From an uncultured Gammaproteobacteria bacterium (GTDB lineage: Bacteria; Patescibacteriota; Patescibacteriia; Magasanikbacterales; GWA2-37-8): a stretch of DNA of 64,000 nt. The stretch spans positions 268,537 through 332,536 of the forward strand of contig CAYHBZ010000002.1 of assembly GCA_964355175.1 (NCBI GenBank). The letters run 5' to 3'. A program made the position numbers and the translations under genes. Within the stretch, counting starts at the first letter, position 1; every line of letters begins with the position of its first letter. The notes beneath the pieces were generated by a model that saw nothing but the letters and a program-made list of their open reading frames with translations, had not been told where the DNA came from and did no database searches. Below are positions 1,302 to 5,521 of the stretch, one piece after another.

Positions 1302-1366
1302 AAAAAACCACCCGTCGCATCAAGAGAAAATATTTTTTCTACTGATGTGAGTGCGGGTGGTTTTTA
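1302..1366. repeat. 65-nt palindromic hairpin element, copy 1 (aaccacccgtcgcatca...tgatgtgagtgcgggtggtt); likely bidirectional terminator
   Basis: Long imperfect inverted repeat with T-runs on both strands. Nearly identical second copy at 5046-5109. Confidence 0.7.
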
Positions 1367-1431
1367 TTTTCTTCCAATCTCGACTATAGACCACTTTCGT
1401 TGGTGGTCGTGGTGTTTGAGAAAGTGAAGTC

Positions 1432-1620
1432 CTATTGAGTAGGTGTGTCAGTAGACTTGCGCCGTACCGGAATTGTCATTTTGTCACCTTCAGGCACGTA
1501 GGTCGCTTCGGGGACGGACTCGTACCGAGGATGTTTTTCTAGCCACCTTTCCACCGCCTTCACCCAGTGTTCGTTTGGTAGGAGCTTGATTTCAACCCAC
1601 CTAGTGTATCCCACCATCTT
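1432..1620 (-). CDS. small G+C-rich ORF (62 aa, MVGYTRWVEIKLLPNEHWVKAVERWLEKHPRYE...), hypothetical
   Basis: Strong SD (AAGGAGA) 6 nt upstream of ATG on the minus strand. GC-rich codons in an AT-rich context. Stop TAG. Lies next to palindromic element copy 1. The 90-aa ORF-track version was trimmed to the SD-supported start. Confidence 0.4.
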   Translation of the reverse strand, partial: KMVGYTRWVEIKLLPNEHWVKAVERWLEKHPRYESVPEATYVPEGDKMTIPVRRKSTDTPTQ

Positions 1621-1814
1621 TATCTCCTTGTTCAATGGTTGATATCCGCATAAAATGCGGGCATATAACCAAATGAACAATTTATAATAGCACATTGGCG
1701 GCAAGTGTCAATATAGACTATGTGAAGTTGACATTTTAAATAGAAATCATTAAGATATAATTATTAAATTTAACTACCCCCTAGGTATAAGTGACCAAGG
1801 GGCTTTTGTATTTT

Positions 1815-4364
1815 ATGCAAGAAAAAATTGTTATTAAAGGCGCGCGTGAGCACAATTTGAAAAATATTTCGCTGGAATTGCCGCGAAATAAGATGATTGT
1901 GTTTACCGGTTTGTCGGGTTCCGGCAAGTCTTCTTTGGCGTTTGATACTATTTTTGCCGAAGGTCAGCGTCGCTATATCGAATCTCTGTCGGCCTATGCC
2001 CGACAATTTTTGGGCGGTATGCAAAAACCGGATGTCGATGAGATCGATGGACTGTCACCGGCTATTTCTATTGATCAAAAAGCGCACAGCGCCAATCCGC
2101 GCTCTACTGTAGCCACTATCACCGAAATTTATGATTATCTTCGTGTGCTTTTTGCGCGCGTGGGTCGTCCGCATTGCCCGGAATGTGGTACAAAAATAGA
2201 TAAGATGACTACGGATGAGATGAAGGATCAGATAGAAAAAAGATTAAAAGCGGAAAAAAATAAAAAAGGGGAGTTGGTAATTTTATCCCCGGTAGTGCGT
2301 GGCCGCAAAGGCGAGTATTATCAGATGCTCTACGATATGTATAACTCCGGTTTTATGGAAGTGCGTGTGGATGGCAAAATGCATTCGCTCAAAGAACGCA
2401 TTCTTTTGTCCAAAAATAATAAACACACTATTGAAATCGTAGTAGATAAAATTCCAGCCGATAAAATTGATGATCAACGCCTGGGTGAAGCGATAGAAAA
2501 ATCGGTGGGTCTTAGCGATGGTCTGACCACCGTAATTTATCCTGACAAAGAAGAATCAATTTATTCTACGCTATATTCTTGTCCCAACGACGGTTTTAGT
2601 TTTCCGGAAATTGAGCCGCGCCTTTTTAGTTTCAACAGTCCATATGGTTATTGTGAAGCGTGTACTGGTCTGGGAACTCGAGAATTATTTAGTACTGAAG
2701 AGTGTTCGGTATGTCATGGAAAACGTCTCAATAATACCGCGCTCAGTGTGAAGGTAGATAATAAAAATATTTTTGAAGTAAGTCAGATGAATATCGGCTA
2801 CGCGCGTGAATGGGTCGCATCGCTGGAACAAAAGACAGCGGAAAAAGAATTGGAAATTTCCGGTGCGGTGCTGAAAGAAATTTTCAATCGTCTGCAGTTT
2901 ATGTTTGATGTTGGTTTGCATTATCTTACAATGGATCGCAAAGCCGGCACATTGTCTGGTGGTGAAGCTCAGCGTATTCGCCTCGCTTCGCAGGTGGGCA
3001 CACGCTTGGTGGGTGCTCTGTATGTATTGGATGAGCCGACTATTGGTCTGCATCAGCGCGATAATGATCAGCTGGTCCGTACTTTGCGTAATTTATGTGA
3101 TGTTGGAAACACAATTATTATTGTTGAACACGATGAAGATACAATTCTGGAAAGTGATTGGATTGTAGATTTTGGTCCTGGTGCCGGTAAGCATGGTGGG
3201 GAAGTGGTATTTTCCGGGCCAACCAAAGTGTTACTCGGTGAACAAAAAAATGCTAAAGAATTTTTTGGATGTAAAGTAATGGGCGATCCACATAAATCCC
3301 TCACCGGAAAATATTTGCGTCGCGAGGTGCAAATTGCTGAACCAAAAGATTATCGTAAGGTGGATAGTGCTACACCAAAATTAAAAATCAAAGGTGCTCA
3401 CGAACATAATTTAAAAAATCTTAGTGTAGAAATTCCTTTGCGCCGTTTTGTTTGTCTGACCGGTGTTTCCGGATCCGGCAAATCTACTCTTATGCATGAT
3501 ATTTTGCGTCAGTCGGTGGTGAATAAAATGTTTCGTTTGGATAAACCGGTAAAAGTGAAAGAAATTACCGGTACGGAATATTTGGATAATTTGATTACAA
3601 TTGATCAGGGCGCTATTGGCCGTACTTCTAGATCCAATCCAGCCACCTATACCAAAGCATTTGATCAAATTCGTGATCTCTTCGCCTCCACTCCGGAAGC
3701 GCGTATTCGTGGTTTTAAATTGGGCAGATTTAGTTTTAATGTAGCAGGGGGTCGCTGTGAAAATTGTGAGGGTAAAGGGATGATTGAAATTGAGATGCAC
3801 TTTTTGCCAAGTGTGGAAGTGGTGTGTGAAGTTTGTAAAGGTAAAAGATTTAACCAAGAAACTTTACAGGTATTTTATAAAGATAAAAATATTGCCGATA
3901 TTTTGGCAATGACAATTGAAGAAGCAGAAGAATTTTTTAAAGATATTCCGATGATTTATGACAAGCTAAAAATTCTCAATGAAGTGGGATTGGACTATCT
4001 TACTCTTGGTCAGAGCGCCACCACGTTGTCTGGTGGTGAGGCTCAGCGTATCAAATTGTCACGCGAATTGGCCAAACACGGCACTACGAAAACTCTTTAT
4101 TTGCTTGATGAGCCTACTACCGGTCTACATTACGACGATGTTCGTAAATTATTGGTAGTGTTACAAAGATTGGTGGGGCAGGGTAATAGCGTGCTCGTAA
4201 TTGAACACAATTTGGATATTATAAAATCCGCTGATTGGCTGATAGATTTGGGCCCCGAAGGGGGAGACAAAGGCGGTCAATTGATCGCTGAAGGCACTCC
4301 GGAAGAAGTGTCCAAAAAAGGATTGAGTTCCACCGGCCATTATTTGAAAAGAATTTTGAAATAA
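1815..4364 (+). CDS. uvrA: excinuclease ABC subunit UvrA
   Basis: Two ABC ATPase modules (GLSGSGKSSLAFDTI; GVSGSGKSTL), signature LSGGEAQR twice, Zn-finger cysteines CPECG and CENCEGKG. Start taken at MQEKIVIKGAREHNLKN; the alternative ATG at 1791 is 8 codons upstream. Stop TAA. Confidence 0.95.
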   Translation: MQEKIVIKGAREHNLKNISLELPRNKMIVFTGLSGSGKSSLAFDTIFAEGQRRYIESLSAYARQFLGGMQKPDVDEIDGLSPAISIDQKAHSANPRSTVATITEIYDYLRVLFARVGRPHCPECGTKIDKMTTDEMKDQIEKRLKAEKNKKGELVILSPVVRGRKGEYYQMLYDMYNSGFMEVRVDGKMHSLKERILLSKNNKHTIEIVVDKIPADKIDDQRLGEAIEKSVGLSDGLTTVIYPDKEESIYSTLYSCPNDGFSFPEIEPRLFSFNSPYGYCEACTGLGTRELFSTEECSVCHGKRLNNTALSVKVDNKNIFEVSQMNIGYAREWVASLEQKTAEKELEISGAVLKEIFNRLQFMFDVGLHYLTMDRKAGTLSGGEAQRIRLASQVGTRLVGALYVLDEPTIGLHQRDNDQLVRTLRNLCDVGNTIIIVEHDEDTILESDWIVDFGPGAGKHGGEVVFSGPTKVLLGEQKNAKEFFGCKVMGDPHKSLTGKYLRREVQIAEPKDYRKVDSATPKLKIKGAHEHNLKNLSVEIPLRRFVCLTGVSGSGKSTLMHDILRQSVVNKMFRLDKPVKVKEITGTEYLDNLITIDQGAIGRTSRSNPATYTKAFDQIRDLFASTPEARIRGFKLGRFSFNVAGGRCENCEGKGMIEIEMHFLPSVEVVCEVCKGKRFNQETLQVFYKDKNIADILAMTIEEAEEFFKDIPMIYDKLKILNEVGLDYLTLGQSATTLSGGEAQRIKLSRELAKHGTTKTLYLLDEPTTGLHYDDVRKLLVVLQRLVGQGNSVLVIEHNLDIIKSADWLIDLGPEGGDKGGQLIAEGTPEEVSKKGLSSTGHYLKRILK

Positions 4365-4397
4365 AAAAATCCCCGAATTAATCGGGGATTTTTTTAT
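4365..4397. terminator. bidirectional rho-independent terminator (atccccgaattaatcggggat + T-run) shared by uvrA and the LysE gene
   Basis: Perfect 8-bp GC-rich stem, A-run upstream, T-run downstream. Confidence 0.7.
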
Positions 4398-5020: not shown

Positions 5021-5045
5021 AGTTAAATTATAGCAAAAATTCATA

Positions 5046-5109
5046 CAAAAAACCACCCGTCGCGTCAAGAGAAAATATTTTTCTGTTGATGTGAATGCGG
5101 GTGGTTTTT
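5046..5109. repeat. 65-nt palindromic hairpin element, copy 2 (same orientation as copy 1, a few substitutions, one compensatory G-U)
   Basis: aaaaaaccacccgtcgcgtcaagagaaaatatttttctgttgatgtgaatgcgggtggttttt aligns with 1302-1366 with about 4 differences. Confidence 0.7.
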
Positions 5110-5169
5110 GGGGAGTCACGATGGTCGCGCCCCCGATGATGTCTTTTCGGGGGTGGGTGGCTGTGTGGG

Positions 5170-5400
5170 TCACTGGCCGGGCGGATGCTTCTCGTTGAGA
5201 AACGAGAGCAGTACAGCCTGGGAGTGAGCCACATCTTCCGTGGTGCGACCGCCTTCAATCCAGGCATGGGCCAAAGGCATAAGCATCTTTTGACCCTGAG
5301 ACGGTCCGATCCGGCGAGCCAATTCATACAAGATCTGGCCAAGATCGCTGGCGGTTTGATGCAGACGGCTAACCAATTCGTCATTCCTGAGACCTTCCAT
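5170..5400 (-). CDS. small G+C-rich ORF (76 aa, MEGLRNDELVSRLHQTASDLGQILYELARRIG...NEKHPPGQ), hypothetical
   Basis: SD AGGAG 7 nt upstream of ATG on the minus strand. GC-rich codons. Stop TGA. Lies next to palindromic element copy 2. Confidence 0.4.
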   Translation of the reverse strand: MEGLRNDELVSRLHQTASDLGQILYELARRIGPSQGQKMLMPLAHAWIEGGRTTEDVAHSQAVLLSFLNEKHPPGQ

Positions 5401-5521
5401 GGTAGTGCTCCTAGCAAAGACAGGATTGTCTCGCTTACATTATTTTAAAGTATTTTTAGAAGAAAATCAATTTGGCATATTGTTTTATAGAAATTTTTTT
5501 GTTAATATACTATATCTTCGT

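Follow-up and report, generated by a model that had tools for sequence, protein, structure and literature searches.

A long conserved terminator-like hairpin closing small transcription units divergent from uvrA and uvrC in a Magasanikbacterales genome

The DNA considered here, referred to below as the window, is a stretch of 64,000 nucleotides (nt) from an uncultured bacterium of the Magasanikbacterales (Patescibacteriota; contig CAYHBZ010000002.1, positions 268,537 to 332,536 of the forward strand) with a G+C content of 40%, and it holds the 3' end of uvrB as well as uvrA and uvrC. Within its first 6 kb lie two near-identical long hairpins in the same orientation, which we call hairpin B and refer to as B1 on the uvrA side (1299..1369, palindrome 1302-1366) and B2 on the uvrC side (5044..5113, palindrome 5046-5109), both read here on the minus strand. 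Each stands behind a small minus-strand open reading frame (ORF), namely ORF61 (1432..1620, 61 codons plus stop) and ORF76 (5170..5400, 76 codons). B1 is located between ORF61 and a convergent plus-strand gene for an AbiEii-type nucleotidyltransferase toxin, and B2 follows ORF76 at a distance of 60 nt and precedes the start codon of a LysE gene by 26 nt. The coordinates of the two hairpins in the original prediction are borne out and the two are the sole copies in the window; likewise, its ORFs are indeed GC-rich, preceded by a Shine-Dalgarno (SD) sequence and 60-65 nt away from the hairpin, although the first of them encodes 61 and not 62 amino acids (aa). Since the hairpin and ORF region is the same letter for letter in three independent assemblies, each of which covers both copies, an assembly artefact can be excluded.

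Hairpin B1 consists of an A-tract, a 7-bp GC outer stem (CCACCCG/CGGGTGG), a 3-nt bulge on the 5' side, an inner stem of ~16 bp with mismatches and a T-tract, and B2 differs from it by 4 substitutions and 1 indel. Folded as RNA, the plus strands of the two window copies reach -35.4 (z -9.2) and -36.0 kcal/mol (z -7.0), and the minus strands -32.2 and -25.2 kcal/mol. With its 28 pairs and its bulge the element does not fit the usual size of a terminator (stem ~5-14 bp, loop 3-8 nt) and is not reported by a simple terminator scan; the ordinary terminators of the window measure 34-41 nt in total. A covariance model built from aligned copies scores 90.8 bits for B1 and 89.3 bits for B2, compared with 20-27.5 bits at other sites of the window. 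These weaker matches are mostly ordinary 34-41-nt hairpins of the genome with A-tract, stem and T-tract, and hairpin B thus shares the ordinary terminator architecture at about twice the length.

The element is rare. Patterns made from its arms (17-20 nt) or from the outer stem plus gap gave two true matches in the window, where shuffled sequences lead one to expect 0.00-0.13; one further match to the first arm pattern, with 3 mismatches at 38539, is unrelated. For comparison, related contigs were retrieved around homologues of UvrA and of ORF76, and these and other loci carry L-numbers as labels (L073, L125-L139 and others). No copy beyond the two slots beside uvrA and uvrC was found in the window and ~70 kb of related loci, and these two slots account for all copies in ~130 kb of related DNA, with no extra ones in L125, L127, L134, L138 and L139 and none at all in L136/L137. 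A specific pattern scan of the JGI metagenomes returned 2 loci, both at uvr slots. A scan of positions 1-8000 against Rfam 15 (E up to 1) yielded only sub-threshold chance matches, such as one to Thr_leader over 1301-1444 (23 bits against a gathering score of 55), and none over 5040-5170.

Across 13 copies, i.e. 12 aligned ones and that of L139, the architecture is constant: all 13 have the bulged 28-bp stem, the A-tract (A4-7) ahead of it and a run of T5-7 behind it (TTCTTT in L128), with folding energies of -24 to -36 kcal/mol. Owing to the A-tract, the reverse strand also reads as a stem followed by a U-tract. The original prediction had raised the question whether a small ORF always accompanies the hairpin, and in every copy such an ORF lies directly 5' of it. 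The hairpin is flanked by convergent genes at B1 of the window, of L134 and of L138, and at B2 of L125, L126 and L138.

On the uvrC side, ORF76 is read divergently from uvrC. All parts of its unit are on the minus strand: a sigma-70-like promoter (TTGATT-17-TAAAAT, 5470-5442), a conserved hairpin in the 5' untranslated region (5'UTR; GAGACA/TGTCTT, ~5413-5435), an SD (AGGAG, 5412-5408), the ORF itself and, behind it, a small GC-rich hairpin A (5130..5157; arms CCCCCGA and TCGGGGG around the loop aaagacatca) with a C-rich 5' flank. A protein search returned three close homologues of ORF76 with 72-83% identity, to which an exhaustive profile search added two more remote but credible members (79 and 71 aa), and a further homologue of 78 aa was found in L134, so that the family spans 71-79 aa. 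All credible homologues are divergent from and adjoin uvrC, and none is placed elsewhere; profile matches to TPR/HEAT repeat proteins were repeat-inflated and were not accepted. In five of six pairwise comparisons, 26-34 differences fall on codon position 3 compared with 7-12 on position 2, with no indels; in the sixth, between the two most similar sequences (L125-L128), changes are too few for a codon-position pattern to emerge. Because of this third-position excess, the constant length and the confinement of the homologues to the vicinity of uvrC, we regard ORF76 as a genuine conserved protein-coding gene. An AlphaFold (AF2) model predicts a four-helix protein (pLDDT 71), with no match in Pfam, PADLOC or among PDB folds.

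Behind each ORF76 homologue on a long enough contig, the same order of C-rich stretch, hairpin A, linker and hairpin B is found; hairpin B itself follows the homologue in L125-L128, L133, L134, L135 and L138. The loop of hairpin A, AAAGACATCA, is near-invariant in the ORF76-type loci and the stem shows compensatory variants among relatives; in L134 the loop is altered to AAGCCA. In L138, the orthologue of ORF76 (L138 8076-8235, minus strand) has an in-frame TAA at codon 37, where the others have CAA, together with an intact 5'UTR hairpin and intact hairpins A and B, and represents either a pseudogene or a sequencing variant. On the other side of B2, an extended -10 element (TGCTATAAT, 5021-5045, minus strand) lies between the hairpin and LysE. 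As it lies ~6 nt before the LysE ATG and no SD is present, it suggests a leaderless LysE mRNA that would start right after the hairpin; comparable TATAAT boxes are found behind B2 in L128 and L134.

The uvrA-side unit, also on the minus strand and divergent from uvrA, is built alike from different sequence. A sigma-70-like promoter (TTGACA-16-TGnTATTAT, 1711-1684), a long 5'UTR hairpin (~1630-1680) and an SD (AAGGAG, 1629-1624) precede ORF61, the stop codon of which is 65 nt from B1, and a hairpin A'' (GACCAC-loop-GTGGTC, 1389..1408) occupies the 3'UTR. The orthologue of A'' in L138 reads GGCCACC/GGTGGCC, a compensatory A-T to G-C change. The coding status of ORF61 is putative: no homologue was found in the protein database, and the ORF at the same slot of L138 shows marginal likeness to it (BLASTP E=0.076, shuffle p=0.029), with a slot DNA alignment of 0.56 against 0.53±0.02 for shuffled sequence, whereas the segment from A'' through the linker to B1 is 79-86% identical between the two and uvrA 87%. 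A hidden non-coding RNA in place of the two ORFs was rejected, as the whole transcripts fold with z-scores of only -2.5 and -1.9 and the coding pattern of ORF76 is clear. Further upstream, before the start of uvrA, a plus-strand hairpin (ACCCCCTAGG...CCAAGGGGCTTTTG, 1776-1806) is conserved in L134 and L136, with a similar form in L138, and may be a leader structure of uvrA.

The two units were originally taken for copies of one duplicated module, and this is true for the hairpin only. The ORFs and their 5' regions show no detectable homology, and the alignment of the two loci is limited to the segment from A-tract to T-tract; the DNA outside the hairpin, compared with window copy 2 and with three relatives, aligns locally at the level of shuffled sequence. 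As ORF61 and ORF76 gave no BLASTP alignment and a shuffle test placed their likeness at p=0.14, the (W/F)LxEKHP motif that both had been said to share is at chance level and no evidence of homology. Both regions differ in composition from the window, with a local G+C content of 0.48-0.57 against a mean of 0.40, and a G+C content at third codon positions (GC3) of 0.56-0.60 in the two ORFs (0.56 in ORF61) against 0.30-0.36 in the uvrA, LysE and AbiEii genes.

The conservation of the 3' end exceeds that of the gene in front of it. Between the window and L133/L134, ORF76 is 39-49% identical as protein and 57-62% as nucleotide sequence, while the segment from hairpin A to hairpin B is 84-87% and hairpin B 82-94% identical. 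Across comparisons, the A-to-B segment retains 84-90% of its nucleotides against 57-81% for ORF76 (39-83% in aa); uvrC is 80-84% identical in nucleotides among three of these genomes. The changes that do occur in hairpin B largely respect its pairing: in the alignment of 12 copies, 91% of the cells are paired, compared with 45-56% when the partners are slid. Double changes comprise C-G to G-C in the outer stem of the L134 B2 copy and a pair, 29/56, that is seen as A-U, G-C and U-G, and the L139 copy adds U-A to C-G and C-G to G-C. Fold stability, conservation and compensatory changes hence all agree with the proposal of a structured 3' element under selection. One of the arguments made for it holds in part, since the A-to-G difference between the window copies, which had been read as a G-U pair maintained by selection on RNA structure, keeps a G-U pair in the RNA of the plus strand, opposite the ORFs, but turns an A-U pair into an A.C mismatch on the strand of the small ORFs.

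Across genomes, TTGATGCGA is common to the B1 copies and TTGACG(C/T)GA to nearly all B2 copies, the exceptions being L130, which carries TTGATGCGA, and the diverged copies of L134 and L139. As B1-type and B2-type hairpins are thus each orthologous across genomes, the duplication is older than these species, and B1 and B2 are old paralogues rather than recent insertions.

Whereas the hairpin stays, what precedes it changes. At the uvrA-side slot, L134/L135 (UvrA 92% identical) have a B1-type hairpin behind an unrelated hydrophobic ORF of 41 aa and a different GC hairpin, and L138 (UvrA 95%) has a B1-type hairpin behind a different, basic ORF of 61 aa. No module is present at this slot in L139 (UvrA 92%) or in L136/L137 (UvrA 87%), and in the P0030 contigs (UvrA 85%), for which the gene table only was used, a uvrB-uvrA spacing of ~100 nt leaves no room for one. 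At the uvrC-side slot of L139, ORF76 is replaced by an unrelated ORF of 72 aa, for which two membrane helices are predicted; behind it, an A-type hairpin (CCCCGGA/TCCGGGG) and hairpin B are again present. The module therefore persists with its ORF replaced (L139) or carrying a nonsense codon (L138). From these comparisons, the uvrA-side slot turns over and the ORF between promoter and module is replaceable. The small, mutually unrelated ORFs of the relatives that share the hairpin, together with the coding signal of ORF76, uphold that part of the original prediction which spoke of small genes with a conserved 3' structure.

The surroundings of the slots vary as well. Between uvrB and B1 (region 442-1292), the AbiEii-type gene (627-1292, plus strand) is overlapped from its upstream side by a 68-aa ORF (442-648, plus strand), and since relatives hold other genes or nothing at the AbiEii position, the uvrB-uvrA gap is variable, too. 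Depending on the genome, B2 is followed by LysE (window), by uvrA in convergent orientation, by a gene for a GNAT acetyltransferase, by DUF1761, or by Peptidase_S51 accompanied by a XerC/D-like recombinase and by variable islands. The stretch from uvrA to B2 encodes radical SAM, Fic, cyclase, asparaginase and DUF2335 proteins in L134 (12552-21123) and HEPN and unknown proteins in L139 (12691-17386); gene content thus differs between the two over 5-9 kb. Both stretches end with a XerC/D-like tyrosine recombinase and Peptidase_S51 beside B2, and this region looks like a hotspot for integrative islands. Short Logan contigs with distant ORF76 homologues (the 3' ends of L131, L132 and L133) stop exactly at hairpin A or B, as would be expected of co-occurring strains with different downstream DNA or of a module present more than once.

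From our point of view, hairpin B is best read as a long bidirectional intrinsic terminator and 3' stabiliser, ending a lineage-specific 3' module of small units divergent from uvrA and uvrC, and we would give this reading a probability of roughly 0.55. The module would comprise a small GC-rich hairpin A, a linker of 20-30 nt and hairpin B, and would close two short, strongly promoted transcription units that diverge from uvrA and uvrC. Because its GC-rich stem base sits between an A-tract and a T-tract, hairpin B is predicted to stop the small-ORF transcript on the ORF strand; on the other strand it would stop convergent transcription, which comes from AbiEii in the window and from uvrA, uvrB or another gene in the related loci. 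In combination with hairpin A and the hairpins of the 5'UTR, hairpin B would probably also shield the short mRNAs from exonucleases. Termination, stabilisation and the cause of the additional conservation are what we infer from the sequence, and this additional conservation suggests a second, sequence-specific role, e.g. as a protein-binding site or as a processed 3'UTR RNA.

Several observations weigh against this reading or go beyond it. A 28-bp stem, a fixed 3-nt bulge and a near-invariant sequence exceed the needs of a plain terminator, and termination leaves unexplained both the conserved loop of hairpin A and the high GC3 of small genes that have no homologues beyond the clade. The covariation, which the original prediction had proposed as a check, does include compensatory pairs but is sparse, most of the stem being invariant, and it exceeds the shuffle control only weakly. 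Most copies are also more stable on the strand opposite the ORFs (-28 to -35 against -24 to -29 kcal/mol), which fits bidirectional use and singles out neither strand. Lastly, L134 and L139 are homologous across uvrC as far as the promoter of the small ORF, then carry unrelated cassettes of 371 and 396 nt, and are homologous again from precisely the 5' edge of hairpin B through Peptidase_S51, so that this breakpoint could instead indicate a role in recombination. Since invariance, bulge, hairpin A loop and breakpoint are not explained by termination, two rivals, a processed 3'UTR RNA and a recombination boundary, stay alive.

The first of these holds that the segment of ~110 nt from hairpin A through the linker to hairpin B is itself the product, i.e. 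a small RNA (sRNA) derived from the 3'UTR of the small-ORF mRNA, to which the ORFs would be secondary; the loop of hairpin A or the linker would then serve as interaction surface and hairpin B as the terminator of the sRNA. A 3' segment that has changed far less than the coding sequence and no more than uvrC, the near-invariant loop, the retention of the module where the ORF is replaced or nonsense-bearing, and a layout of 5' stem-loop, linker and terminator that is shared by many bacterial sRNAs speak for this idea. We nevertheless consider it doubtful, as hairpin A is wholly different at the B1 locus and no Rfam family matches; furthermore, no promoter-like sequence precedes hairpin A, so that the ~110-nt RNA could arise by processing only. 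A fold-back inhibition, in which the 3'UTR pairs with the SD region or 5'UTR, was likewise rejected: it is seen in the single-sequence minimum free energy structure but not in the alignment fold, and the altered hairpin A loop of L134 has no compensating change in the 5'UTR. The second rival is set at the level of DNA. Here, hairpin B would be an attC-like or att-site-like recombination or insertion site, used for instance by a hairpin-recognising recombinase, with cassettes of promoter, ORF and hairpin A being exchanged to one side of it and larger islands to the opposite side. Besides the break in L134/L139 homology, which coincides with the 5' edge of hairpin B at one end and with the promoter beside uvrC at the other, the three different B1-slot ORFs of three close relatives (UvrA 92-95%), the genes directly downstream of B2 that differ in nearly every genome, the several short contigs stopping right at hairpin A or B and the one-sided conserved 3-nt bulge, which recalls the extrahelical bases of attC, all point in this direction. 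However, neither an attC R''/R' consensus nor an integron integrase or cassette array is present, the cassettes are self-promoted, no partial second copy of hairpin B flanks the islands, and the recombinase near B2 is XerC/D-like and found in some genomes only. As ordinary homologous recombination on conserved flanks (the uvr genes and hairpin B) after DNA uptake would give the same pattern, we deem a recombination site unlikely; the bolder version, in which hairpin B (with A) would be the constant boundary of a system that swaps short, GC-rich, self-promoted small-gene cassettes, and larger islands across from them, at a folded DNA hairpin through a dedicated recombinase, by analogy with yet distinct from attC, seems a little more unlikely still.

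Two further readings can be given very little weight. The original prediction had likened the hairpin to repetitive extragenic palindromes (REP) and miniature inverted-repeat transposable elements (MITE). It would then be a mobile palindrome recently copied to a second site, and the near-identical copies with boundaries that match the palindrome and with unrelated flanks are what one would expect of it. This reading is largely refuted by the presence of only two copies in 64 kb and by relatives' copies confined to the same two orthologous slots, as in the JGI loci. No target-site duplication or direct repeat is visible around either copy; B1 and B2 each being orthologous across genomes, the duplication is old. 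It is equally improbable that the units are loci similar to type I toxin-antitoxin systems, in which the mRNA of a toxic peptide is structured at both ends and a bidirectional terminator is shared, on the pattern of par (Fst/RNA II). Small ORFs, strong promoters, 5'UTR hairpins beside the SD and a bidirectional terminator would suit such loci, the slot ORFs of L134 (41 aa) and L139 (72 aa) encode hydrophobic products that resemble membrane proteins, and toxin or defence genes are nearby (AbiEii in the window, Fic and HEPN in relatives). The products of ORF76 and ORF61 are hydrophilic, though, no plus-strand promoter-like site was found in 1296-1620 or 5040-5400, hairpin B would halt an antisense transcript before it reached the ORF, and PADLOC and Pfam gave no matches. 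Some candidates were dismissed outright. Hairpins A and B have no match among the viral contigs of IMG/VR, which argues against a viral origin. As to a diversity-generating retroelement or retron, the copies do not differ at adenines specifically, the slot ORFs lack homology instead of being mutated forms of one ORF, and the called genes near either copy include no reverse transcriptase. A DNA uptake sequence was rejected as the 10-mer of the arm is not enriched, with one extra exact copy in the window.

A number of observations concern hairpins and genes elsewhere. In a long bulged hairpin at 56965-57034 (minus strand), the outer stem reads ATCACTCGC/GCGAGTGAT, 3 nt bulge out on the 5' side and the inner stem is AT-rich around TGAAAA/TTTTCA; situated just downstream of a GC-rich ORF for a Stig1-like protein, this hairpin is the best non-self match of the hairpin B model (27.5 bits) and may be a distant relative of hairpin B or a mere likeness of architecture. 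This ORF belongs to one of four further GC-rich islands of the window (14126-14750, 44776-46150, 56976-57975 and 59551-60125; peak G+C 0.61-0.67 against 0.40), each of which contains an ORF with a GC3 of 0.64-0.78 and its own GC-rich 3' hairpins. In this order, the ORFs encode a Cys-rich secreted or membrane protein of 128 aa (14272..14658, minus strand), a protein of 418 aa with a weak NAD-binding match (44821..46077, plus strand), the Stig1-like Cys-rich secreted protein (57142..57954, minus strand) and a CxxC zinc-ribbon-like protein of 133 aa (59584..59985, plus strand). A loose outer-stem pattern scan of genome contigs gave 120 matches from many phyla, mostly due to chance. Among these, L073 (Magasanikbacteria) has a GC-rich ORF accompanied by one hairpin with CCCC/GGGG arms and another that resembles hairpin B; having been selected by the search pattern, it counts as a lead only, and the L008 match was discarded as an ordinary terminator behind a tRNA. 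In L134, gyrB (L134 1-3019) contains an intein (Intein_splicing domain; product of 1146 aa), and gyrB of L136 and L139 does not.

If hairpin B is a terminator and nothing more, the finding is an ordinary one. The terminator and regulatory-RNA biology of the Candidate Phyla Radiation is, however, almost unexplored, and a hairpin that stays near-invariant even as its small upstream gene diverges or gives way to another points to a sequence-specific function beyond termination or to a preferred boundary of recombination. The surroundings of uvrA, uvrB and uvrC are a turnover hotspot for small, GC-rich, lineage-restricted genes and for defence-type genes. A stable 3' RNA or a recombination site, if either is true, would offer a new way to approach the gene flux and post-transcriptional control of these reduced genomes.

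It remains to place hairpin B among known systems. With the imperfect palindromes of REP elements and bacterial interspersed mosaic elements (BIME) and with MITEs such as RUP, Correia and ERIC, it shares a position in intergenic 3' regions and unrelated flanks, but it occurs in two copies at orthologous positions, is not dispersed and shows neither a visible target-site duplication nor, in the DNA compared, a sign of an associated transposase. Integron attC cassettes resemble the present loci in that variable small ORFs each precede a long imperfect palindrome with unpaired bases on one side, at which homology breaks. In contrast to these, the units described here are self-promoted and have no R''/R' core, IntI, attI or arrays: the ends of hairpin B, AAAAACCACCCG and CGGGTGGTTTTT, fit neither R'' (RYYYAAC) nor R' (GTTRRRY), no integrase lies near either window copy, and XerC/D-like recombinases occur in L134/L135 and L139 only, convergent with the unit. 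3'UTR-derived sRNAs of the CpxQ, SroC and DapZ type likewise have a 3'UTR more conserved than the coding sequence and an order of stem-loop, linker and terminator hairpin, whereas hairpin A is not common to the two loci here. The DNA uptake sequences (DUS) of Neisseria and the uptake signal sequences (USS) of Haemophilus form inverted repeats in terminators near genome-maintenance genes and occur about once per kb; hairpin B, too, has sequence-conserved terminator arms adjoining DNA-repair genes, but the 10-mer of its arm is not over-represented in the window. The closest likeness is to Rho-independent bidirectional terminators, with which it shares a GC-rich stem base between an A-tract and a U-tract and a place where units end, frequently with genes converging on it from both sides, and the design of its flanks is that of the other terminator-like hairpins in the window. 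It departs from them in its ~28 pairs, conserved 3-nt bulge and fixed mismatches, as opposed to 34-41 nt in total, in its near-invariance even where the upstream gene is at 39% identity or replaced, and in the second conserved hairpin that precedes it. Overall, we place hairpin B among the terminator-type 3' elements.

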